From: a virus
Lineage: Duplodnaviria; Caudoviricetes
Strand: one strand, 5' to 3'
Length of the DNA: 54,963 nucleotides
Virus record (IMG/VR): IMGVR_UViG_3300009703_000023
Coordinates: 1 to 54,963 of that record
Both the position numbers and the translations under genes were made by a program. Under the pieces are notes generated by a model. That model was not told where the DNA came from. It saw only the letters and a program-made list of their open reading frames with translations, and did no database searches. Below, one piece after another: positions 7,516 to 54,206 of this stretch (its first letter is position 1; the number at the start of each line of letters is the position of its first letter).

Positions 7516-7719
7516 ACTTATTCCGTTAGTGAATTTAGTGAGTAGGTGGATGAATCAATTGGCAGCAAAAATTCCCTCTGGCTACAACGTAGCTACCACT
7601 ACGTAGCTACCCAGAAGGGGAGGAGACTGCACTTCATCAATTCTATTTCTACAAGGGTTCATAGTTACCTACAAACCCAGCCTGACCTTCCACCAGTGCC
7701 TGGCCAAGTATTCTCCTCC

Positions 7720-9060: not shown

Positions 9061-9082
9061 AGCTCCTCCTGTGAGACACAAT

Positions 9083-9097
9083 ATTAGCCCAGCTAAT
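9083..9097. promoter_or_regulatory. Palindromic operator copy 1 (ATTAGC-CCA-GCTAAT)
   Basis: Intergenic, upstream of the helicase; one of seven copies. Confidence 0.75.
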
Positions 9098-9098
9098 A

Positions 9099-9758: not shown

Positions 9759-9838
9759 GTAGCTCTTTTTCTCGGTTGTCCCGTAGTTGCTTGAGAGTAA
9801 GGATGACGTGTAGTGCGGCTAGAAGTTTCAATAGCAGA

Positions 9839-10036
9839 TTAGTCATCAAGATCTTTGTCACTTCTAAACAAGATCCAAAACCCGCCAATGACTACTGCAA
9901 TCGCTACAAGTATCCAGATGGCTGTAAAGACGTGGTAGGCAATGATTGCTGCTACAAGAAAAACGACAGATATCAAAAACCAAGCGCCAAATTCTTTTAA
10001 GCGTTGAAGCATGGCTGCTATTTCTCCATAAGCCAT
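9839..10036 (-). CDS. Small two-helix membrane protein
   Basis: 65 aa with two hydrophobic stretches. Confidence 0.55.
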   Translation of the reverse strand: MAYGEIAAMLQRLKEFGAWFLISVVFLVAAIIAYHVFTAIWILVAIAVVIGGFWILFRSDKDLDD

Positions 10037-10335
10037 ACACGTAACCCGGAAACGTCGTTCTCAGTCCACATTCTGGTCACTATTTTATAGTGCGCCCTAG
10101 AAGTATCTTCATCTCGCCATCGAATAAAAGCGTTGTGTACGGCTGCACGTTTGTTTTGCCGTGCTCGATATATGGGATCTGAACGTTTGGTTTTCCGTGA
10201 GGATTTTGTGGCTTTTTCTGAAATAGGGGTAAAGAAAGAATCGCCAGGGTTCATATCGTCCCAATTGTTGTATATAGGACTGCGGTTTAGGTGTCTTGCT
10301 TTAGGTATGGGTATGTCTTTTTCTACCGTGAACAT
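10018..10335 (-). CDS. Small basic putative DNA-binding protein
   Basis: VEKDIPIP...MNPGDSFF...GLRVW pattern; GGAGG RBS. Confidence 0.65.
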   Translation of the reverse strand: MFTVEKDIPIPKARHLNRSPIYNNWDDMNPGDSFFTPISEKATKSSRKTKRSDPIYRARQNKRAAVHNAFIRWRDEDTSRAHYKIVTRMWTENDVSGLRVWLMEK

Positions 10336-10612
10336 TTTTGTTCCTCCGTGATTTAGCTACCGATGCTTTATGAGCACGAGCTTCTTCGTTTTCATCACCA
10401 AACCAATGCTCGATGATGTGTTGTTTTAGGTTAGCGAGACTTAGCTCAGTGTCGTTGCTAAGTATTTTTATCTGGCTGGGGGTTACTACGTGGTTTGAGT
10501 AGTTATGCACTTCTTCTGATTTGAATATGAAGTGGTAGTTTTTCTCGTCGACAACACCGTAGTAAGTGATTTTGTCTCTACGTATCTTGGCTTTCATATT
10601 AGTTATAGCCAT
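10301..10612 (-). CDS. Hypothetical protein
   Basis: 103 aa ORF in the minus operon, downstream of a terminator. Confidence 0.55.
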   Translation of the reverse strand: MAITNMKAKIRRDKITYYGVVDEKNYHFIFKSEEVHNYSNHVVTPSQIKILSNDTELSLANLKQHIIEHWFGDENEEARAHKASVAKSRRNKNVHGRKRHTHT

Positions 10613-10640
10613 TAGGCTTCAATAGTTAAGGGCTAGAGAT

Positions 10641-10694
10641 AAAAAAGCCCCCCACCTAGCCGTCCGTGGAGCGGAGAGAACTAGATGGAGGGCC
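10641..10694 (-). terminator. Rho-independent terminator
   Basis: Minus strand GCCCUCCAUCUAGU...GCUAGGUGGGGGGC followed by UUUUUU. Confidence 0.75.
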
Positions 10695-10823
10695 ACGTTG
10701 CTACGCAGGCCACGGGGGTAACCAGTTGACGTCTACATGCGGGAATGGGGAGTAGATGTCATATACATAGCAACAGTGTTGAGTGGGGCCATAGGAGCCG
10801 ACCTTGTTGCTTAGGCAAGGCCG
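10641..10823 (-). ncRNA. Candidate structured sRNA / 3'UTR RNA with C-rich loops, ending in an intrinsic terminator
   Basis: Five hairpins found by eye; most imperfect pairs are G-U only on the minus strand; ends in a 14-bp stem plus U6. Confidence 0.5.
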
Positions 10824-11573
10824 TTATAGAACCCCCCACTCACACTCGGGGTAGTCGCCTTTCTTGTAGCTGCACCAACGACAAGCTTCCTTACTTGGTG
10901 TCGGGGGGAAGTCTTCAGCTGTTGTCATGGCGACCGCTCTTTGGTGCCAACCCGGAACAAACGTCATGGCTTGCTCTCGAGTATAAGGTTTCTTCGTTGT
11001 CTCCCCTTTATCTATGTACCAAAACTCCGTTTGTACGTACTCGATATGCGGGTAACGGAAAAAAGTTCCAATTGCGTACAGCAGTCCTTGCTGTGAGTGA
11101 GCAATTTCGTTCCCCCACTTCTTTCCTGTTTTGTAGTCGATAACACGAGCAGACGTGTCGTCCTGTTGGACTAGCGCGTCTAGTTTTATCCTCGCCCAGG
11201 TGTCTTCACCCATCCAACCTACGGGTTTCCAATCCATGGAAAACCCCCATTCGCCTTCTAGTTCTACCTTGCCATCGACAAACAATGATCGTAGTTCGTC
11301 AAAGTCATCTTCGAACTTAGAAAGGGTCTTGGGAAATTCATCGAGTTTTCCAGCTACCCAATCTTCAGCTTCTTGGTGGATCTCGGATCCACGGTCGGCA
11401 GCTGGCGATGAGGGTTCTGAAATCCTCTTTACCCGTGATATGTAGGTTCTGTAGGGGCAGTCTTCAAAAACCTTCAGCGCGGAGTAAGACCACGCTCTAA
11501 CAAGACCAAGCTTGTCTGGTTTTTTTAGAACGTTCGCCCCATCTGGACGTTCTGTTTGTGTTAGCTGGACCAC
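10824..11573 (-). CDS. Cas4-like PD-(D/E)XK exonuclease
   Basis: WSYS...CP, RGSEIH, LD...IDYKTG, Q-x3-Y and C-terminal CRWC-x8-C (four-Cys Fe-S staple). Confidence 0.88.
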   Translation of the reverse strand: MVQLTQTERPDGANVLKKPDKLGLVRAWSYSALKVFEDCPYRTYISRVKRISEPSSPAADRGSEIHQEAEDWVAGKLDEFPKTLSKFEDDFDELRSLFVDGKVELEGEWGFSMDWKPVGWMGEDTWARIKLDALVQQDDTSARVIDYKTGKKWGNEIAHSQQGLLYAIGTFFRYPHIEYVQTEFWYIDKGETTKKPYTREQAMTFVPGWHQRAVAMTTAEDFPPTPSKEACRWCSYKKGDYPECEWGVL

Positions 11574-11597
11574 AGTTTCTTCCCAACTAGAAACCTC

Positions 11598-11612
11598 ATT
11601 AGCAGAGCTAAT
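11598..11612. promoter_or_regulatory. Palindromic operator copy 2 (ATTAGC-AGA-GCTAAT)
   Basis: Between primase and exonuclease; overlaps TGcTATATT (extended -10-like) on the minus strand. Confidence 0.75.
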
Positions 11613-11625
11613 ATAGCATATCTTA

Positions 11626-14139
11626 TTACACAGTCGATATAAGACGTTGGTCGTCGTGCGTGAAGTAAGTATCTATTAGATGGGTCTGCTCGTTAGGTGT
11701 CAGTTGCCAGTCAACTACTACGCCTCGTATCGGATTGGCATCACGCCCTGCATTAAACGGTCGTTTACGTTCTGGGGATAAACCGTTTCTGCTCATCCGT
11801 TTAGTGAAGTCTTTGATTGAGTATCTTGGATTTTGCTCTGTCTGCACGTGATACACAGTTCTTAAATGCTCCATTGGAATAACTGCGTAATCGTTAGCTT
11901 GATCAGCAATCCACGCTTTTACTATGCGCTGCGCTGTATCTATGTCGCCGCTGTTGAGTACAGTAGTTGTATTAATGTCGAGAATGTCAGTGAAGAATGT
12001 GAGGTTGCCTACTTTGACGGCTTCACTAAATTCCTCAAAGACGGACATTGATACTGAGCGCATAACTCGTTTGGCAGAGTTATCCACAGGTGTAGTAGCC
12101 AGACGTCTGTCTACATTGAAGGCGGCGAGTACACCTGCTAAATGCCACAGCTCTTTTTCAATTTGATTCGAATCGATCTTGTCTGATATGTCGTCGAAGG
12201 TATCAAGCAGTTTGTTCTCTTGAGAAGGCGCTATGTTGTAGCGGCGATCTCCTGGTTCAATGCTTACTGCATCGGCGCGGTTAGTTAGAAAGATGAAGTT
12301 TGTATAGTTCGGTATCTCAAGCTGGTTTGACCGCATGGCTCGAATCGTAATAGTACGTTCTGTGATCTGAGTCTTTAGCTGGTCAGCCATCTTTCGTATG
12401 CCAGCTGATGCGCTAGCCATATGAAACTCATCTACTACAAGAAATAGTGCGTCTCGCATATACAGATTGAACTGTTCTTCCATATTACGTAGGTATCTCA
12501 TGGGCGCATGATGCAGTCCAAACAGTCCTCGTAGTATGCGGGTGTAGAAAATACCTTTACCTGTTCCTTGGACACCCGACAGAACCCAAGCTACACCTGT
12601 CTTCTGACGGTTTTGATATATGAAAGCTAGCCAGTTGATGAACCTTTCAAACTCTTCGTCACCGTTACCGAGCATGTGGTACATGATCTGGTAGCACAGC
12701 GGCGTCAGTTCTTTCAGGTACTTGGCGCTGCCAAACTCAATGTCTACAGATGGTTCTGTAGGATTAAGGGCGTACTTAGTCTTCCTGAAAGTGTTTATGT
12801 AGTAGGGGATCTTCTTTAGGTTAACTGCGGGGTCATCGCTTGCTGGGTCAAAAACCACGCGGCCATCGGGTATGAACTCAGGTAGCACTTTCCCGTGACT
12901 GTTGAGGAACCCTTCAACGTTCTGTTTGGTAATCGGTGTCAGAGGAAATTCATCTGAGAATTGATCAGTGTTCGGGTCAAACATTCCTGCATATATTGTG
13001 TCTGTATCGAAATCTCGCATGACCATTGCTGTTTCAGCCTTGCCGATTTCTTTGAGCTTTTCTTGGAACGTTTCTGGAATCGCAGCAAAGAACTCTGCGT
13101 CGGCTTTTTCGATTTCAAATATCGGTTCTCCTTTGAAGTTGAACATGTAGATGGGATTGTCTGCGTAGAAATAGTAAGCGCCTGAATCACCACCGTTCAC
13201 GTTGCAACGTACAAAGGGAAAGTTCCCGGTATCTACAAAAGATATGGACATCTTGTCTGGGTTGGTGAGTATCTCTACGGGTTCATTACCCAGCGAGGTC
13301 ATTTTGAGTTTGCTGTTTTTCTTTTTGAATCCGCGTTCTTCTCTTAAGCGGTCTTTGGCTTCTTGTCCTTTTTCAAAAGTCTTTTGCGGAGACAAGTTAC
13401 CAATCAGTTGACCTAGATCGAAAGTAGCGCGCTCTCGTTTTATAAGAACAATGCGCTCGTCGTCATCTTCAAAAGGATTTTGATTTGGATCGGAAAAGGT
13501 AGGGGGTGCTATGAAGATTATCTTTGAGTTGTCTGCGACAGATATGTCGAGAGGGTAGGTTAGCGACTGTCCGTTTACGCTTAGGTCCATCTGCTCGGAG
13601 AAGGTGTCCGACTCAAAGTTAGCGTCTTGAAGCCAGAGCTTTATGCTTTTAGGTGGCATGGGCACTTCCAGCAGCATAAAGATGTGCAAGGAAATGGCAT
13701 CTCCTTTTAAGCCTAGGCTAGATGAAGCTTGGGCTATGTAGGAAACGTCGTGCAGCTCTACTGGTAACTCATTCAGCACCTGCCTAGCCAGGAAGCTGAC
13801 GTCGTCTTTTTTGAGCTTGCGACTATAGTCGAGAGGTTTTGGCAGACGAACGCCATCTATGTCTAATACTAGAAGTGAGGAAAGAGTGGTCTTTCCTATG
13901 TGGCCTGCACGGCTTTCTTCTACTAGGGCTTTTTTCAAGTTGCCTTTTAACAGGCAATGGCCTTTAGCTCCGTAGGTTTGGATAAGTTGCTCAAGATCTT
14001 CTAATCCCGCTTGGTCGAGCGTTATATCTTCTTCGTGGGAATTTACAGCCTTGACTAAAGGGTAGGGCGTTACTGATTTTCCTGTATAGGATTTGGACAG
14101 AGGCAAACCATTAGTTGCCTCTAAGAAATGTAGCTTCAA
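11626..14139 (-). CDS. Primase-helicase (prim-pol-like N-terminus plus DUF5906/SF3-like NTPase)
   Basis: LDID and SLH motifs at the N-terminus; GVQGTGKG Walker A, VVDE Walker B, FLTN...DRRY. Confidence 0.85.
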   Translation of the reverse strand: MKLHFLEATNGLPLSKSYTGKSVTPYPLVKAVNSHEEDITLDQAGLEDLEQLIQTYGAKGHCLLKGNLKKALVEESRAGHIGKTTLSSLLVLDIDGVRLPKPLDYSRKLKKDDVSFLARQVLNELPVELHDVSYIAQASSSLGLKGDAISLHIFMLLEVPMPPKSIKLWLQDANFESDTFSEQMDLSVNGQSLTYPLDISVADNSKIIFIAPPTFSDPNQNPFEDDDERIVLIKRERATFDLGQLIGNLSPQKTFEKGQEAKDRLREERGFKKKNSKLKMTSLGNEPVEILTNPDKMSISFVDTGNFPFVRCNVNGGDSGAYYFYADNPIYMFNFKGEPIFEIEKADAEFFAAIPETFQEKLKEIGKAETAMVMRDFDTDTIYAGMFDPNTDQFSDEFPLTPITKQNVEGFLNSHGKVLPEFIPDGRVVFDPASDDPAVNLKKIPYYINTFRKTKYALNPTEPSVDIEFGSAKYLKELTPLCYQIMYHMLGNGDEEFERFINWLAFIYQNRQKTGVAWVLSGVQGTGKGIFYTRILRGLFGLHHAPMRYLRNMEEQFNLYMRDALFLVVDEFHMASASAGIRKMADQLKTQITERTITIRAMRSNQLEIPNYTNFIFLTNRADAVSIEPGDRRYNIAPSQENKLLDTFDDISDKIDSNQIEKELWHLAGVLAAFNVDRRLATTPVDNSAKRVMRSVSMSVFEEFSEAVKVGNLTFFTDILDINTTTVLNSGDIDTAQRIVKAWIADQANDYAVIPMEHLRTVYHVQTEQNPRYSIKDFTKRMSRNGLSPERKRPFNAGRDANPIRGVVVDWQLTPNEQTHLIDTYFTHDDQRLISTV

Positions 14140-14169: not shown

Positions 14170-14352
14170 CTATTTTTGCTTTTTGCCGTCAGAGAGTTCT
14201 TTTCTGAGAATTTTTACTTCTTTATCGGCTTCAAAAGTAAGACGGACTTGTTGCCCTTCTACTCGGCTTACTTTTACAGACGCCACTACCTCATCACCTT
14301 TAGAGATGATTATGGTTTCCCCTACTTTTCTGGTTAGAACAAGTCGTGGCAT
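14170..14352 (-). CDS. csrA: CsrA/RsmA-like RNA-binding translational regulator
   Basis: MPRLVLTRKVGETIII...QVRLTFEADKEVKILRKEL matches the CsrA fold pattern, including the Arg at the R44-equivalent position. Confidence 0.85.
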   Translation of the reverse strand: MPRLVLTRKVGETIIISKGDEVVASVKVSRVEGQQVRLTFEADKEVKILRKELSDGKKQK

Positions 14353-14353
14353 G

Positions 14354-16168
14354 TCATTTTGAATAAGAAGTGTCGTACCCGCCTTCAGCATTAAGCGGGA
14401 TTTCTGGTGCCCAATTGGGTCTTATGCACATATCTTTGATAAGCATATCAAGCGTTTGATCCGGGTTGGCATCTGGTGCTGTGATTATTATCTCATCATG
14501 TACGGTTAATGCTATTTTCCCATCGGGTATTCTGCTGCTGAGTCGGATCATGCTATCTGTGATTACGATTCGACTCAACGCTTGAACGACGTTTTCTGTG
14601 ATTCTTCCCCCGTAAGTTGACTCACGGTGCCGTTTTCCGTCGTAGCTCAACCCGTCTGCTGTGTACTTTAGGTCAGGGTATTTGAGAGACATGCCATTTG
14701 GCAGCTGCAAGCTGTGGTAGCCAACCGTCAGAGGTCCGTATTTAATGCCTGTGTTCTCCTCACGGAGAGACAGCGACAGCAATTCTTCTAATTTGTTCCA
14801 CAGTATTCGTATTTTTGGGTAGGAATTTCGGTAGGTGTTGACGATCTTTTTAGCTTCGTCTTCGTCGAACTCCATGGCTGGCCCCATGGCTCCGCTTCTT
14901 AGGGTAGCGGCGAATTTTTTATGCCCCATTCCATAACCGAGTCCCAGAATGGCTGTTTTACCGACAAAGCGTTCTGTAGGATCGTCCTTCTTGTTGATCT
15001 CGCGTTTGTACACGCGACTGGCAAATAGACTGTAGATGTCTGCTCCAGCTTCGAATTGGTCCAATAGTTCTTGTTCCCCTGCCAACCAAGCCAGCATTCG
15101 GGCTTCAATGTTCGATAGGTCTGCGACATAGACCAGCTGTCCTTCCGGGGCAATCAAGCATTTTCGTAGTTCGCCTCCTCGGGGGAGGTTTTGCATGTTC
15201 ATTTTCTCAGTCCCACCGAACCTGCCGGTGTGGGCGGCGTAATACCGGATGGGTACTGGGATGAAGTCTTCGTTTACAGCAGCGTCAAGAAACCTTTGTG
15301 CCCTGGTTTCTGTCAGTCTGCTTTTTACGGTTACTCGGGCGTCCCATATATGCTGATGCTGAGGGTACATCGCCTGCAGTTGTTTAAAGCCAGCGTCATT
15401 TTTCCCAAGCGCAGGGATCTGTTCGCCAGTTGTGGGGGAGCGTTTGGTGGGGACGACTATGTCTAAGTCTTCGATTACTTGAGCGAACTTAGGATTGGAA
15501 GCGAGGTTGGCACGATCGAGACCGCTTGCCTCTATGCGAGCTTCAGCTTTCGTAGCCTCTTGCTCTAAGTAAGAAGTCAGACGACAACGGTCAATCTTCA
15601 GTGATGGCTCGCAGAACATTCTTGTTGTTATGTCGATCAGTTCTATTTCGGACTGCGGGTAATGAGGCTCTAGCTGTCTGTAGATGGCATAGGTCAGGTC
15701 TACATCTTGGATGCAGTAACGAGCGATGTCTTCTTCTAGGTCGGGCGGGAGATCGTAAATGCCTTTGGCAGAGGCTAGCTCTTCTCCCTTTCGCATACTT
15801 TCATCGTCGGGGAAGCATCGTTCCGCAATGGACCTTAATGAAGCTGACTGAGCTGGCCACCAGCCGCGACTCATTGCAGCTGTGTCACGGTAGAAGGCAG
15901 GCGTGACTCCGTAGTATTGAGTGAGGATGTAGCCGTCGAATAAAGTGTTTTGACACAGCAGATCTATGTCTGACCAATCTAGGCTGTGGATAAAATCTTC
16001 GGCTTCGTCTTCTCCGTACCAGAGGGTTTCTCCGTCTTCGATTTTTGCTCCTACTCCCCACACTTTGAACATATCGTGGGCGACATATTCCATAGTGGTC
16101 ATCTTGCCAAGGCTTAGCTTGGTGTCGTAGTAAGTTTCGAAATCTAGGGTAAGAAGTTTCATCACCAC
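14354..16168 (-). CDS. polA: Family A DNA polymerase with 3'-5' exonuclease domain
   Basis: LDFET (Exo I), HTGRF, NMQNLP, DLSNIEAR (motif A), KTAILGLGYG (motif B), VHDE (motif C). Confidence 0.95.
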   Translation of the reverse strand: MVMKLLTLDFETYYDTKLSLGKMTTMEYVAHDMFKVWGVGAKIEDGETLWYGEDEAEDFIHSLDWSDIDLLCQNTLFDGYILTQYYGVTPAFYRDTAAMSRGWWPAQSASLRSIAERCFPDDESMRKGEELASAKGIYDLPPDLEEDIARYCIQDVDLTYAIYRQLEPHYPQSEIELIDITTRMFCEPSLKIDRCRLTSYLEQEATKAEARIEASGLDRANLASNPKFAQVIEDLDIVVPTKRSPTTGEQIPALGKNDAGFKQLQAMYPQHQHIWDARVTVKSRLTETRAQRFLDAAVNEDFIPVPIRYYAAHTGRFGGTEKMNMQNLPRGGELRKCLIAPEGQLVYVADLSNIEARMLAWLAGEQELLDQFEAGADIYSLFASRVYKREINKKDDPTERFVGKTAILGLGYGMGHKKFAATLRSGAMGPAMEFDEDEAKKIVNTYRNSYPKIRILWNKLEELLSLSLREENTGIKYGPLTVGYHSLQLPNGMSLKYPDLKYTADGLSYDGKRHRESTYGGRITENVVQALSRIVITDSMIRLSSRIPDGKIALTVHDEIIITAPDANPDQTLDMLIKDMCIRPNWAPEIPLNAEGGYDTSYSK

Positions 16169-16726: not shown

Positions 16727-17212
16727 TTAGCTCGTAAGCTGTCTTATTAGTTTTGCTGCTGGGCCTTGTGTCGGACGGTCGTCGTTGAGTTTATCCAACT
16801 CTTTACCGTCTAGGATCATCGCGATACATGCAAGCGCATGACTTAGATGATGTACTCCAGAATCTTCGGCCAAGTCTTCCCCGTCCCACCAAGCTGTTAG
16901 ATGTCGAAGACAGGCTCCATAGTACACACTGGATGAGATCTTTTTCTCTCGCCAGTTGTAAGGGCCGTATTTGTCAGCGCCATCTTGAAAGGCTGTAGCC
17001 ATTTCTATTAATGCAGCAGGCGGGACCAGGTGAAGCTGCGGCTTCTTTGCACCGAAAGTAGTTTTCGGATTGTTGTCGGGGTAACCGGTTGTAAGGAGAG
17101 GCAACTGAACATCGTGACAAGTCTTGGAACAAAATCGTTCGTCTAATGACGTGGCATATAGCGGATTGAATTGCGTCCCGCACTCTCTACAGATGTTAGT
17201 TGTTTTCTCCAT
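16727..17212 (-). CDS. DUF5664-like dATP/dGTP diphosphohydrolase domain protein with N-terminal Zn finger
   Basis: KPQLHLVP...GADKYGPYNW...RH...GEDLAEDSGVHHLSHA; N-terminal CREC...CSKTC. Confidence 0.8.
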   Translation of the reverse strand: MEKTTNICRECGTQFNPLYATSLDERFCSKTCHDVQLPLLTTGYPDNNPKTTFGAKKPQLHLVPPAALIEMATAFQDGADKYGPYNWREKKISSSVYYGACLRHLTAWWDGEDLAEDSGVHHLSHALACIAMILDGKELDKLNDDRPTQGPAAKLIRQLTS

Positions 17213-17291: not shown

Positions 17292-18416
17292 CTACTCTTG
17301 GTTGTCGGGATGAATGTAGACCACTGTTCCAAAGGGAGCTGTCCCACGGCGGTCTGTAGAGATCCAAAGGACTGGAATACCAGGTTCTTCTCCGAAGTCA
17401 TTGGATTCCAGATCAGTGAAGTACACAATCGCTGCTACATCTGGATGATTCTTATCTACGTAGTCGATAGCTGTATCGAAACGTGTGCCGCCTCCTCCTA
17501 CGGGCTGATATTCATGAAGCTCAAACTCTTGAGCCGGATCCACGACCAGTTCGTTTTCTACATCTGTGTCGCACGACAAGATCACCAGTTTTTCTGGGCT
17601 TAAAGCTTGGTGGATATACCGTACTTCTGTAACGAATTGGTTGAGCAGCTCTGGATCTGCTGTTATTGAAGCTGAAGTGTCGAATATAACTGCGAATGGC
17701 TCAGCAGCTGGAATCCCTAAGCTGGGAAGATATTCGTCTTCAGATATATAGGCTCGGTTGGGTTTCCTCCATGAGTAGTCTGTTCGGGAAAGCGATTGCA
17801 GGAAGGGCCAAAGTACGGAGCGCCAGTTAACCAGCGGCGCTATTGCATCTTCTACAAGAAGCTTTAGATGAGCTGGCATTTTGCCTGCTCTTTCTGCGGC
17901 TTCTTTAGCAGCAGCTACATTTTGTTGCCAACGTACTTCCTCCGCAGATTCATTTGCAGGTGCGTCTAGTACTCCGCCCCATTTGCAGCCTTCAGCGCCG
18001 TCGGGAAGAGCTGCATATACATCGTCGGTGTGCATGCCTTCGAATTGGGAGTCGTGAAGTCCGCCATCAGGAAGAATGAAGCCAGCCTTCAAGAGGCAGA
18101 GGTTGATTACATGATCACCTGCGACATTCCATTTTTTTGGGTCTCGTTGGCCTCGTCGGGTGTGATGCTGCAGCGCTGGATGCATTACTTCATGAGCAAT
18201 AAGCCCCATGGTCTGCAGAATATCTTGTTTGCCCATCCACTTAGGATCGTAAAACAACCGTCTTCCGTCAGTAGCTGCCGTTCCTTCGGCTTTTTCTGGA
18301 TCTACTACGGGAGTAAGGCTAAGTGCTAATGTCCCGTAGAAAGGATGATCCAATAGAAGATTGTTACGGGCTTTGCTTATTTGGCGTTCGACCTTTTCAA
18401 GGTCTTCTTGGTCCAT
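17292..18416 (-). CDS. DUF2201-type metallopeptidase plus vWA domain protein
   Basis: TAATDG, HEVMH, D-x2-IN; vWA MIDAS-like DTSAS, GGGGT, FTD. Confidence 0.88.
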   Translation of the reverse strand: MDQEDLEKVERQISKARNNLLLDHPFYGTLALSLTPVVDPEKAEGTAATDGRRLFYDPKWMGKQDILQTMGLIAHEVMHPALQHHTRRGQRDPKKWNVAGDHVINLCLLKAGFILPDGGLHDSQFEGMHTDDVYAALPDGAEGCKWGGVLDAPANESAEEVRWQQNVAAAKEAAERAGKMPAHLKLLVEDAIAPLVNWRSVLWPFLQSLSRTDYSWRKPNRAYISEDEYLPSLGIPAAEPFAVIFDTSASITADPELLNQFVTEVRYIHQALSPEKLVILSCDTDVENELVVDPAQEFELHEYQPVGGGGTRFDTAIDYVDKNHPDVAAIVYFTDLESNDFGEEPGIPVLWISTDRRGTAPFGTVVYIHPDNQE

Positions 18417-18418
18417 AC

Positions 18419-19249
18419 TTATTCTCCGAGTAATTTGGATCTGAGGACGACTTGATCAGCTAATGCTGAGTCAAAGTCGATTTCGTCTCTTATTGTTTTT
18501 GCTTTCTGTACACGTGTAGTTTTCTGGTACAGCTTCTGAATGGAATCTGACGGCACGAACTCACGGACCCCTGGCCAGGCGTCGATGGCTTGTTTAAGAG
18601 TGTTACATTCGTCCAGCAAATTCCTTATTTGGCTTTCGAACTGTGATGCTTTTTGCCTGTATTCCAACTCGCGCTTTGCATTCTTAAGAAGAATGTTTAG
18701 GCATGGTGATACGTTTTCTTCAGCACAGTCGGCCAAGTCCACAGTTATATGGTTGTAGTAGGCGTCGTACTTACTTGAGTAGAAGTTTACTTTTCTATAA
18801 GGGTTGTCGAGTTGGTACTGCGTAAAATTCAGTTCGCGATCCCTAATCGGATTTGGCGGATTGCTTTTATTAGCGCTTCGCCATTCGTCAGGGATCAAGC
18901 TTTCATGCCAATTGAAGTAGATGATTGAGCCTGCGAATGTGTGTAGCGCGGGTGCTTCCATGCGGATTGCGTTACGGTTGTAAGTGTCTCGTGGCCTACG
19001 ACGCAGTCTGCCGCCAATAGCGTACTGTTCTGTTTTATCAGCTACTTGCGTGCGCAAGAGATCAAATGTACGCATGTGCTCGTCAAGCTTGCTACTTGCT
19101 TTTTGAAGTGGGCTATTTTCTATAGCCGCAAGAAGTATTTCTTGCTCTTCGTTGGGTACAACCGGCGCTATGTTACCTGCAGTGAATGCTTCGGTGGCGT
19201 TACGCCGTATTTGATGCCTCAGATCTTCTGATAAACGGACTGATCCCAT
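18419..19249 (-). CDS. Hypothetical protein, Nmad5-like termini
   Basis: N-terminal VRLSEDLR and C-terminal NTLKQAIDAWP resemble nucleotide-modification-associated domain 5 (recalled pattern, not searched). Confidence 0.5.
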   Translation of the reverse strand: MGSVRLSEDLRHQIRRNATEAFTAGNIAPVVPNEEQEILLAAIENSPLQKASSKLDEHMRTFDLLRTQVADKTEQYAIGGRLRRRPRDTYNRNAIRMEAPALHTFAGSIIYFNWHESLIPDEWRSANKSNPPNPIRDRELNFTQYQLDNPYRKVNFYSSKYDAYYNHITVDLADCAEENVSPCLNILLKNAKRELEYRQKASQFESQIRNLLDECNTLKQAIDAWPGVREFVPSDSIQKLYQKTTRVQKAKTIRDEIDFDSALADQVVLRSKLLGE

Positions 19250-19259
19250 TGATCTCTCC

Positions 19260-20258
19260 TTAAATAAGTACTGATGCGTTGTTTTTGATCCAATCGTTAG
19301 TCGCTTTTTCGTCTAACAGTTCGGGGTATTTAGCGATACCGTCGCGTATACAGCAGACTTGGAACTCGCTGGGCATACGGCGGACGAACTTCATAAGATC
19401 GTTCCAATTGGTTGGGCTACCGTGAGCAGCTACGGCTCCGACAATTGCATATAACTGATCGGGTTGGTCAGGAATACGGGTTGTGGTTGGACGTTCCAGC
19501 ATGTCTTCTATAGTTGGAAGATCTGCATAGATCCGTTTGAAGGTGACGTATTCACCTCCGGGGCCATCTCCTACTAAAGAAGCAGCTGCGTAGAACTCAT
19601 CCATAACATGCGGAAGCTTACGGCTCAGCATGTTCCAGCTTCGAGGAGTTGGCATTGCTGATTCAACGCGATCGACTTTGTGCAACAAGTTGGGCCGATA
19701 GCGAAGAAAGCCAATGATCGATGCGTCGATGTTGTTCTTGCTAGCCCATGCGCACCAGTCGTCAATGTTGGCTTCGATTTCATAGTGAGCGAATCGAGTC
19801 TTAACGGTGGTTGGGACGTTATGTACAGCGGCACCGTCTTGCGCTCGGTTACCGCACGCAATAATGGTTGTGTACTGGGGCAAGCTGTATGTACCGATGC
19901 GCTTGTTAAGGATCAACTGCAGCAGTGCATTTTGTGTAGCTTGCGGAGCATTAGGCAGCTCGTCGATCAACAGAACGTGGTGTTCTTGAGCATTGCTGTC
20001 TGGATAGTCTTCCGGTACTCCGTAGTGAGTACGATAGGTGCCGTCGACTTCCTCTACTACTTTGAGACCGCCACGAACGTCTACGGGATCAAAGAGATTT
20101 GCACGAAGCTCATAGAGCTTGGCGTTAACAGACTTAGCAAACTGATAAACGATCTCTGATTTACCAATGCCGGGTCCGCCTTGGATGAAGCTTGGAATAT
20201 CCGAAAGGGAATTGGCGTGAAGCTCATCTTTGAGCGCTGATGGGCGGATAGATTGCAT
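19260..20258 (-). CDS. MoxR-like AAA+ ATPase
   Basis: GGPGIGKS Walker A, LIDE Walker B, ACGN sensor, TRF, PTPRSW. Confidence 0.9.
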   Translation of the reverse strand: MQSIRPSALKDELHANSLSDIPSFIQGGPGIGKSEIVYQFAKSVNAKLYELRANLFDPVDVRGGLKVVEEVDGTYRTHYGVPEDYPDSNAQEHHVLLIDELPNAPQATQNALLQLILNKRIGTYSLPQYTTIIACGNRAQDGAAVHNVPTTVKTRFAHYEIEANIDDWCAWASKNNIDASIIGFLRYRPNLLHKVDRVESAMPTPRSWNMLSRKLPHVMDEFYAAASLVGDGPGGEYVTFKRIYADLPTIEDMLERPTTTRIPDQPDQLYAIVGAVAAHGSPTNWNDLMKFVRRMPSEFQVCCIRDGIAKYPELLDEKATNDWIKNNASVLI

Positions 20259-23719: not shown

Positions 23720-23805
23720 TTTTTTTCAAGGCACGTTAGCGCTGCTGCCGCCACGGCCTGCTGCCTGCTGTTTTAAGCAGGTGATAGTGGTGAGCGTCAA
23801 GGCAT

Positions 23806-23855
23806 AAAAAAAGCCCAACCGAGACGAGGAGTGGCACCTCGCCTTGGCCGGGCTT
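23806..23855 (-). terminator. Rho-independent terminator
   Basis: AAGCCCGGCCAAGGCGAGG...CCUCGUCUCGGUUGGGC plus U run on the minus strand. Confidence 0.7.
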
Positions 23856-23871
23856 ATTGGGTGGATGATAG

Positions 23872-23970
23872 TTAGAGGTAGGGAGCGTAGTACAGCGCCC
23901 AAGTTGCCAGTATGCCTAGAGCCATGGCAATGCAGCCGCCTACTACGCCTTCGATTGCTTCGCGGTCCAT
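23872..23970 (-). CDS. Small single-pass membrane peptide (32 aa), not in the ORF track
   Basis: AAGGA RBS; MDREAIEGVVGGCIAMALGILATWALYYAPYL; followed by a terminator. Confidence 0.55.
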   Translation of the reverse strand: MDREAIEGVVGGCIAMALGILATWALYYAPYL

Positions 23971-25198: not shown

Positions 25199-25494
25199 TG
25201 TGTGTCGTGTGTGCCAGGTGTGTGCCACGTTGTGTGCCACCTGCGGTTGGCAGAAATGCTAGCGCATTCAACTGCTTAGGAAGATGTGTGTCGTGTGTGT
25301 CACCTTTTTTATGTTTTCAGTTCAAATTCAAAAGATAAATCTAGTTAGTTGTATATGTGTAGCAGAGGAGAGAACTGGTGGCACACATGACACACATCGC
25401 CAGTTTTCATAAGAAAGTTGTTATGTATCAAGGGTCTAGCGCCAGGCGTCTAACGACACACAAGGCGGCACACAGGTGGCACACATGGCACACA
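25199..25494. repeat. Mirror-symmetric octamer array (6x TGTGTGYC facing 6x GRCACACA) around an AT-rich core; putative replication origin
   Basis: Left copies start at 25199, 25208, 25219, 25231, 25285, 25294; right copies at 25380, 25389, 25455, 25467, 25478, 25487. Confidence 0.8.
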
Positions 25495-25775
25495 CCGGGG
25501 AGGGCGTGGCACTAGCCAAGTGACAGAGGATTACTTACGTATCTCGGTGCGAGTGGGGATATGGTGTCTGTCTATGTCGATTGGCTATAGCGGTTGACAG
25601 TTGTTATGCGCTGGCTCTCGTTGCTACCTGCCATATGTCCCCCGCCCATAGACAGAGGCCAGATCCACACGACCTATAACGAAGAGGTGCTGCGCTGTGC
25701 ATCTCGTTTGTTTACGTTAGTAGGCACTAACCTCCAGCAGCTGTTGCTTTTTTAAGCCAAGGGGGTTACTGAGAG

Positions 25776-25812
25776 ACAAGGTTCCAGAAATAGAAGTCAA
25801 AACAAGGTTCCA
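25776..25812 (+). repeat. 11-bp direct repeat ACAAGGTTCCA x2
   Basis: Copies at 25776-25786 and 25802-25812, upstream of the packaging genes. Confidence 0.6.
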
Positions 25813-25925
25813 ATTCGAAAAATCGGGAGACGGGACTGCTCTGACTGCGGAAAGGGAGAGAATGTCTGAGCGATTCAGACGTAATTTTGAAATTTTTTTT
25901 CTGGAAATTTTGCCAAAGACGTTAT

Positions 25926-25940
25926 ATTAGTAGGGCTAAT
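25926..25940. promoter_or_regulatory. Palindromic operator copy 3 (ATTAGT-AGG-GCTAAT)
   Basis: Immediately upstream of the first plus-strand gene; overlaps TATATT. Confidence 0.7.
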
Positions 25941-25960
25941 TACTGTTAGATGTGGAGGCG

Positions 25961-26423: not shown

Positions 26424-26452
26424 TTGTTTATAGCAATTAGTGCGGCTAATAT
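26424..26452 (+). promoter_or_regulatory. Sigma70-like promoter with operator copy 4 in the spacer
   Basis: TTGTTT-N17-TAATAT containing ATTAGT-GCG-GCTAAT (26436-26450). Confidence 0.7.
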
Positions 26453-32773: not shown

Positions 32774-32802
32774 TTGTTTTTGCGAATTAGCATCGCTAAT
32801 AT
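32774..32802 (+). promoter_or_regulatory. Capsid promoter with operator copy 5 in the spacer
   Basis: TTGTTT-N17-TAATAT containing ATTAGC-ATC-GCTAAT (32786-32800); same geometry as 26424. Confidence 0.72.
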
Positions 32803-46955: not shown

Positions 46956-46961
46956 TAGTTA

Positions 46962-46981
46962 ATTAGCCGGGCTAATATAAT
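46962..46981 (+). promoter_or_regulatory. Operator copy 6 abutting a TATAAT box
   Basis: ATTAGC-CGG-GCTAAT-ATAAT upstream of the tail accessory genes. Confidence 0.75.
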
Positions 46982-54165: not shown

Positions 54166-54186
54166 GCGATGGACCGCTTCAAATCC

Positions 54187-54206
54187 ATTAGTATCGCTAA
54201 TATAAT
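54187..54206 (+). promoter_or_regulatory. Operator copy 7 abutting a TATAAT box
   Basis: ATTAGT-ATC-GCTAAT-ATAAT, then CAGGAGGAG RBS. Confidence 0.75.

Follow-up and report, generated by a model that had tools for sequence, protein, structure and literature searches.

Small RNAs (sRNAs) that pair with ribosome-binding sites through C-rich loops are known from bacterial chromosomes, among them sX13, the cuckoo RNAs, the double-hairpin toxic sRNAs and RsaE. The sX13 RNA of Xanthomonadaceae has C-rich loops that are said to pair with G-rich sites near ribosome-binding sites, and in Firmicutes the UCCC found in loops or single-stranded stretches of RsaE/RoxS, LhrC and RNAIII seeds pairing to ribosome-binding sites. 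The cuckoo RNAs of Alphaproteobacteria (CcsR, RSs0680 and SmelC397) are described as two to four adjacent hairpins with one loop motif of anti-Shine-Dalgarno (anti-SD) type, in which the stems vary by compensatory changes while other sequence conservation is lost; their founding cluster is described as sharing a transcript with the gene upstream of it and as having a terminator-like hairpin behind it (PMC4615179). The RF02278 sRNAs of Burkholderia cenocepacia (ncS03, ncS05, ncS27 and ncS62) are presented as double hairpins in which unpaired CU-rich stretches complement ribosome-binding sites, and ncS27 as an RNA that slows growth when overexpressed (PMC5688073). Also, the untranslated region at the 3' end (3'UTR) of the icaR mRNA of Staphylococcus aureus is described to pair with its own 5'UTR through a UCCCC-type anti-SD motif (PMC3868564). 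Here we analyse an RNA of similar build encoded on the minus strand, at positions 10641-10823, of the viral record IMGVR_UViG_3300009703_000023 (Caudoviricetes), whose 54,963 nucleotides (nt), with a completeness estimate of 93%, were analysed as a whole and are called the window below. It is a real, selected RNA that follows an exonuclease gene, and RNA of the same design stands at the same place in about half of the related phages. Our literature search found no description of a C-rich-loop RNA that pairs with ribosome-binding sites in a phage, and the terms "C-rich" and "CsrA" are absent from the main text of a 2025 review of phage-derived sRNAs, the supplement with further sRNAs being outside this scope (PMC12197685). 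The phage-borne, 3'UTR-embedded placing is new within the known class of C-rich-loop, ribosome-binding-site-pairing RNAs.

Fold and strand of the element

A sequence-only reading of this DNA had proposed at this place a candidate sRNA of about 180 nt whose hairpin loops are all C-rich. We found that the structured minus-strand RNA stands, and that the independent gene does not: the element starts 4 nt past the stop codon (10824-10826) of the exonuclease gene (10824-11573, minus strand), and a conserved palindrome is found 5' of that gene, so that we take the element as the 3'UTR of the exonuclease transcript. Folded as minus-strand RNA, the 196 nt of 10635-10830 reach a minimum free energy (MFE) of -75.7 kcal/mol (z -5.00) and none of 200 shuffles is as stable, whereas the plus-strand fold has a z of -0.50 and is equalled in stability by 59 of 200 shuffles. 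The whole structure (10641-10823, z -5.0) consists of five hairpins with a U tract at the end, and every hairpin that had been listed from the letters alone is present in the MFE fold of the minus strand.

In transcript order, the first hairpin (H1, 10800-10822) has a stem of 7 base pairs (bp) and a 9-nt loop, CCUAAGCAA, and it is followed by a short hairpin (H2, 10787-10799) with the loop UCCUAUG, which holds UCCU. Then comes a three-way junction (10694-10778) with a 14-bp closing stem that holds two more hairpins. One of them (H3, 10727-10761) has a 15-nt loop with UCCCC and UUCCC, whose C runs show mean unpaired probabilities of 0.79 and 1.0; the other (H4, 10708-10723) has the loop CCCC on a 6-bp stem. 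The element closes with an intrinsic terminator (10641-10693) made of a 15-bp stem, an apical 4-bp hairpin with the loop CUCCA and six U, just as it had been predicted with its CUCCA-capped apex. H1, H2 and the junction were read from the MFE fold, and H3, H4 and the terminator from the MFE fold together with unpaired probabilities. A simple terminator scan missed the terminator because its stem is interrupted, and a naive scan for 5-bp hairpins with C-rich loops gave 27 matches on the plus and 39 on the minus strand, too noisy for use.

Bases with an unpaired probability above 0.8 are 27 C, 13 U, 14 A and no G. The share of C among unpaired bases is 0.51, against a mean of 0.39 in dinucleotide shuffles (none of 500 reaches the observed value), and in hairpin loops it is 0.53 against 0.38 (25 of 500 reach it). 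We counted as C-rich pentamers CCUCC, UCCCC, CUCCC, CCCCU, CCCUC and CCCCC, and of the window's 18 intergenic regions that reach 45 nt, that of the element alone has one in a hairpin loop. In this single sequence the C-rich loops exceed chance just modestly, and the strong evidence is the comparison across relatives.

Near-identical natural variants keep the fold. Contigs from a public DNA run (X4), which represent the same variant as the related locus L082, span 10302-11600 with 29 differences in 1,299 nt (98% identical). Seven of the differences lie in 10635-10830, five at unpaired and two at paired positions, and all seven are compatible with the fold, whose energy is unchanged at -75.2 kcal/mol. 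Both paired changes keep the pairing on the minus strand by G.U, while on the plus strand they are C-A mismatches; the closing stem of the junction has a G.U pair against A-U in L082/X4. A preference for the minus strand, which had been claimed from G-U pairs, is thus upheld by the variants as well as by the fold energies. Another relative, L083, has an exonuclease that is 96% identical and a sequence that ends 63 nt past the stop codon. Its H1 stem differs by one compensatory change from U-A to C-G and one from G.U to A-U, the loop is now CU-rich, and H2 is absent, its stretch being unpaired and containing CCUCC. Contigs from the DNA runs X2, X14 and X24 do not span the whole element.

Loops and stems across related marine phages

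Relatives were found by the exonuclease protein (80 viral and 80 metagenomic loci, with exonuclease identities of 64-74% except for L082 and L083), and the 159 loci with a complete gene end gave 108 distinct downstream sequences. In 67 of the 108, the exonuclease stop codon is followed by an intrinsic terminator at a distance of no more than 220 nt, and 48 of these 67 have at least one hairpin loop with a C-rich pentamer. Among the 133 loops of the 67 sequences, 63 hold such a pentamer and none holds the G-rich complement, and the loops are 47.8% C and 6.0% G. As a control we took 97 other terminator-like sites from the same loci and the window, where the pentamer occurs in 5 of 223 loops and the composition is 22% C and 17% G; the Fisher p of 2e-26 for element loops against control loops is inflated by the kinship of the sequences. 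CCUCC is present in 34 and UCCCC in 45 of the 67 elements. The C-rich, G-poor loops of anti-SD type that had been read from the window are therefore borne out by the fold and by the conservation of the loop motif, and the loops are kept C-rich in the relatives, as had been expected of a functional RNA.

By strict criteria, 48 of the 108 sequences have both a terminator and C-rich loops, 19 have just the terminator, 4 have C-rich loops but lack a terminator, and 37 have neither. The commonest form has a first hairpin about 7 nt past the stop codon, then a terminator with an often C-rich loop, and this two-hairpin form spans 50-93 nt. In a second form (L122, L124 and L125), two C-rich loops sit on a three-way junction and a terminator is lacking, an arrangement that resembles the centre of the window's element, and the number of hairpin modules ranges from 1 to 5. 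On a quick exonuclease tree, used only for the clade spread of the element, it is clustered yet occurs in several well-supported clades, and the most distant clade is without it. By sequence, blastn found nothing similar to the window's element in the phage collection, and neither blastn nor nhmmer matched it to the first 80 related loci. A covariance model of the relatives (R1), built on a seed of 12 of them with a hand-given two-hairpin structure, matches 69 places in 100 sources, 64 of which are plus-strand matches right at the stop codon of the exonuclease gene, and gave no match to the window's element at E up to 1. As there is no alignable sequence, the link of the window's element to this family lies in its position and design.

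The stems turn over while the loops do not. Among 57 distinct first hairpins there are 35 different outer helices, and the loops hold UCC in 49, UCCC in 44 and UCCCC in 36 of the 57. A model-guided alignment with 55 distinct rows has 94.2% of its cells paired, against a mean of 71.8% with shuffled partners, and both sides change in 16 of 17 pairs. The covariation score, from an alignment fitted to the structure in a way that favours the result, is 0.523 against 0.171 with shuffled partners (0 of 500 reach it) and at most 0.083 with slid partners; covariation, which had been named as a check on the RNA, is found in these stems. RNAalifold predicted zero pairs on a plain MAFFT alignment of 56 elements, which is out of register, and the model-guided alignment was used instead for this reason. 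Of the 67 elements, 42 are more stable as the sense than as the antisense strand (Wilcoxon p 0.005), and the U tracts are on the sense strand. Judged from these comparisons, selection appears to act on the structure and not on the sequence, the loop motif being kept while the stems drift.

What the RNA may do

We see about an even chance that the structured 3' end of the exonuclease mRNA is a phage-borne anti-SD riboregulator, and the element probably lets the phage interfere with translation. The element, a modular hairpin array closed by an intrinsic terminator, presents in its loops C/U-rich and G-free motifs (UCCCC, CCUCC, UUCCC) complementary to ribosome-binding sites of the Shine-Dalgarno and GGA types. 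Its likeliest mechanism is that of the known C-rich-loop riboregulators: the exposed loops would pair with G-rich ribosome-binding regions and so block or modulate the initiation of translation. It would be directed at mRNAs of the host and possibly also of the phage, and the RNA could act within the mRNA or, once excised, as an sRNA derived from the 3'UTR with the terminator still attached; transcription, processing, the pairing with ribosome-binding sites and the identity of the targets we infer from the features above. Since the phage genes of the window use GGAG-type ribosome-binding sites, the host presumably does so too. The loops have a slightly stronger pairing with translation start regions than with coding controls (for the terminator apex, -9.0 against -7.5 kcal/mol), and a 9-nt complementarity is found at a doubtful 45-amino-acid open reading frame (ORF) at 25378. 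The cultured relatives are distant (at most 35% identity), and KPP25 and phiA008 have zero intergenic space after the exonuclease gene. The contig L162 (36.8 kb, exonuclease 69% identical) was placed in a Dehalococcoidales bin, which we do not take as host evidence; it is probably a misbinned phage contig.

Several observations weigh against this riboregulator. With 60 C against 42 G in its 175 nt, the C-richness of the window's element is partly a consequence of composition. Its loops hold one strict pentamer and are less canonical than those of the family, the L082 variant has no strict pentamer, and the covariation alignment carries the favour of its fit. The element is dispensable, since by our criteria 37 of the 108 relatives are without any element, and 41 are without a terminator within 220 nt. 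No specific target stood out from the search in the window: the best complementarity, 10 nt in the start region of the gene at 16727-17212, is matched by 194 of 1,000 shuffles, and this gene occurs in 0 of 30 related records. In the relatives it is not the start regions but G-rich codons within the exonuclease and primase genes that come up repeatedly as the best pairing sites. The phage's own ribosome-binding sites would likewise be exposed to an RNA that pairs with GGAGG, and there are no RNA runs among the sequencing runs listed for 9800-12000.

At least 48 distinct variants share the design, all of them at a single conserved position, within an uncultivated but abundant marine phage clade. 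If the riboregulator is true, the phages would have in it a compact RNA tool to take over translation, and it would offer a clean natural experiment in modular RNA evolution and a further case for annotating the 3'UTRs of phages. A bolder form of it, which we hold to be rather unlikely, makes the element a host take-over RNA. As the tail of an early/middle mRNA it would copy in its loops the anti-SD end of 16S rRNA and bind the host GGAGG/GGA sites that the phage CsrA also reads, so that RNA and CsrA would together shut down or re-route host translation and carbon metabolism, and the turnover of stems and modules would be host tuning.

Among the alternatives, the one that survives best, even if unlikely, is that the element is a transcript end only, in which the tandem hairpins and the terminator stop transcription and shield the mRNA from 3' exonucleases while the loops have no pairing role. 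The position at the gene end, with a terminator in 67 of the 108 relatives, is what this explanation expects. It is also consistent with the 19 relatives that have the terminator only, the 37 that have no element, a loop composition that in the window comes partly from the C excess, and a target search that found none. However, control terminators are without such loops (5 of 223 against 63 of 133), and the loop motif is kept while the stems are replaced. The hairpin 5' of the terminator is not needed for termination and yet holds the best-conserved motif, and L122, L124 and L125 have their C-rich loops on a three-way junction with no terminator.

It is distinctly unlikely, in our opinion, that the RNA acts in cis, with the 3'UTR loops pairing with the exonuclease ribosome-binding site and tuning translation or decay as in icaR. 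The UCCCC-type motifs of the 3'UTR and the icaR precedent suggest it (PMC3868564). Moreover, the exonuclease gene seems to be a transcription unit of its own, with a palindrome upstream and a terminator downstream, and its ribosome-binding site is a conserved UAGGA-type motif in most relatives. But the loops pair with the exonuclease start region at -4.8 to -9.6 kcal/mol, near the means over 59 start regions and no better than that average; a ribosome-binding site of this same type is found in relatives that lack the element, and extended complementarity that co-varies was not seen between the loops and that site. We give equally small weight to a protein platform, in which a protein with a KH, S1 or cold-shock domain would bind the pyrimidine-rich loops and the RNA would be a decoy or an assembly site. 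Repeated accessible loops in 1 to 5 modules, a short conserved motif and free-running stems are the signature of a protein sponge too. Against this, pairing is the mode of action, known or proposed, of all the nearest Rfam look-alikes (PMC5688073), the motif exactly complements the ribosome-binding site and no candidate protein is known.

The sequence-only reading had also pointed to a csrA gene 3.3 kb upstream on the same strand, which is indeed there (14170-14391, minus strand, PF02599, E 1e-14), and had proposed the two as a module in which the RNA masks host ribosome-binding sites or neutralises GGA sponges. Phage and plasmid csrA genes are already in print. The chance seems slight to us that the RNA cooperates with the phage CsrA, either by kissing CsrB/RsmZ-type GGA loops and so freeing CsrA or by masking GGA ribosome-binding sites that CsrA binds. 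The chemistry is suggestive, as UCC, present in 49 of the 57 first-hairpin loops, complements the GGA read by CsrA, and csrA is fixed in the clade, standing above the Pfam cut-off and at the same place in 45 of 45 related records. However, it is there with or without the element and no co-variation is seen, so that csrA is a character of the clade and not a partner of the RNA. Between csrA and the element stand the primase gene and a motif that is probably a promoter or operator, and Rfam finds no RNA of the CsrB/Rsm families in the window. That such a pairing is undescribed had been supposed, and our search agrees: no paper was found that links a C-rich RNA to phage or plasmid csrA genes, with the supplement of PMC12197685 outside its scope. 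The csrA/anti-CsrB module is unsupported; the link to the phage csrA is testable, and the data do not support a dependent pair. Very unlikely is a function of the other strand or of the DNA, with antisense GGA/GGAGG loops as a CsrA sponge or the hairpins as single-stranded DNA replication signals, for although each UCC loop reverse-complements to a GGA loop and the element stands among replication genes, the plus-strand fold is no better than shuffles, U tracts, G.U pairs and neighbouring genes all belong to the minus strand, and a CsrA sponge is expected to carry many more GGA sites.

Genomic surroundings and comparison with known RNAs

In the window, the plus strand carries a capsid gene, a terminase and a P22-type portal, and the minus strand a replication module that includes small ORFs, a GP88-like protein and an SNF2 helicase. 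All genes neighbouring 10641-10823 are on the minus strand. The exonuclease is of the PD-(D/E)XK (RecB/Cas4-like) type (PF12705, E 5.4e-19; phrog_69 exonuclease, E 4.1e-28), and 5' of its gene lie those for a primase/DUF5906 protein (11626-14139), CsrA and a family A DNA polymerase (14354-16168), all on the minus strand. The element lies in a gap of 211 nt that separates the stop codon of the exonuclease from the next gene past the terminator, a minus-strand ORF of 103 amino acids with no family (10301-10612).

A palindrome, TATTAGC-N4-GCTAAT(A), occurs at seven sites of the window, all of them intergenic (9082-9098, 11597-11613, 25925-25941, 26435-26451, 32785-32801, 46961-46977 and 54186-54202), with 14 strand matches where 0.93 are expected. 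This palindrome probably serves the phage as promoter or operator. The site at 11597-11613, which has no strand, lies in the gap between primase and exonuclease, and a similar palindromic motif is found 5' of the exonuclease gene in most relatives; from this upstream palindrome, the exonuclease gene and the element may form one short transcription unit. A second conserved palindrome, UUCCCGAUCGGAA-like, stands about 5-40 nt past the terminator in relatives such as L007, L023, L025, L029, L043, L050 and L053, where it precedes, together with a conserved leader, the next gene, apparently for a small hydrophobic protein. In L026, L052, L063 and L065, which are without the C-rich element, the UUCCCGAUCGGAA-like motif comes directly after the exonuclease gene.

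Elsewhere in the window, the 3'UTR of the SNF2 helicase (7516-7719, minus strand) starts with GGAGGAGA; its pairing partner is UCUCCUCC, some 90 nt downstream and immediately ahead of another terminator. There the anti-SD-like stretch is sequestered in a stem and not displayed in a loop, and the z is only -1.67. A weak match of R1 at 23807-23874 (E 0.15) was rejected as a second copy of the element: it falls on the terminator that follows a small ORF of 32 codons, and the C-rich stretch in it belongs to coding sequence. That ORF belongs to 23800-23970 (minus strand), where a good ribosome-binding site, the hydrophobic peptide and a strong terminator follow one another. The gene at 16727-17212 (minus strand) encodes 161 amino acids with the N-terminal domain of a dATP/dGTP diphosphohydrolase (PF18909, E 2.8e-29). 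The names from PHROGs conflict (endolysin and pyrophosphohydrolase), and its absence from all 30 related records makes it lineage-specific. Next to it, 17292-20258 (minus strand) carries a MoxR-type AAA ATPase (19260-20258), a 276-amino-acid ORF (18419-19249) and a DUF2201 metallopeptidase/VWA protein (17292-18416). To our knowledge, a pair of MoxR-type ATPase and DUF2201/VWA protein is not usually discussed for podophages. Where the genes switch from the minus to the plus strand, 436 nt without an ORF (25516-25951) fold strongly, at -136.8 kcal/mol, and end at one of the seven palindromes, and this is likely a control or origin region.

With respect to known families, no Rfam model matched at gathering score in the whole window or in 20 relatives, so that the known unrelated family that could have explained the element away was not found. 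Matches at E up to 10 in 10400-11000 were two, both at chance level, and the window has no tRNA or tmRNA. Below the gathering score, which is 50 bits both for sX13 (RF02232) and for RF02278, the relatives gave sX13 matches of 33.6 bits (L053), 25.2 (L044) and 24.8 (L123), and matches of 29.5 (L086), 23.0 (L123) and 16.3 (L053) to RF02278, the Betaproteobacteria toxic sRNA. Anti-hemB reached 25.7 bits at best (L025, L113, L123, L134 and L053), and mmgR (L086) and ErsA (L113) appeared as well, again below their gathering scores. The weak matches of sX13, RF02278 and anti-hemB are placed exactly on the 3'UTR of the relatives, and all three models stand for sRNAs that pair with ribosome-binding sites through C- or CU-rich loops, which speaks for the riboregulator.

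The element shares with sX13 the several stem-loops with C-rich loops, in the window and in the relatives, and in L053 hairpins 2 and 3 of sX13 align to the first hairpin and the terminator. However, the part of the model for the first sX13 hairpin aligns to exonuclease coding sequence, the hosts and the genomic context differ, and the window itself has no match. The common two-hairpin form of the relatives, with a C-rich-loop hairpin and a C-rich-loop terminator, recalls RF02278, yet those sRNAs are free-standing chromosomal genes, whereas the element is phage-borne and sits on the 3' end of a coding gene; the version of the window has five hairpins instead of two and no RF02278 match. RsaE/RoxS, LhrC and RNAIII differ in being free-standing genes of other phyla, and the element has no Rfam match to them. 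The icaR mRNA has a UCCCC-type motif in a bacterial 3'UTR and the exonuclease 3'UTR has UCCCC-type motifs too, but a preferential pairing with the exonuclease start region was not found. Like the cuckoo RNAs, the phage family has adjacent hairpins, variable stems and a loop motif that alone is conserved; it differs in that the cuckoo motif CCUCCUCCC is in none of the 67 elements, its own motifs (UCCCC, CUCCC, CCUCC) are shorter, and it is borne by phages. As in 3'UTR-derived sRNAs of the CpxQ/CcsR type, the element and the 64 relatives matched by R1 combine a 3'UTR position with the intrinsic terminator of a coding gene. Judged by its sequence and predicted fold, the element is outside the sX13, RF02278 and cuckoo families, and yet it is built like them.

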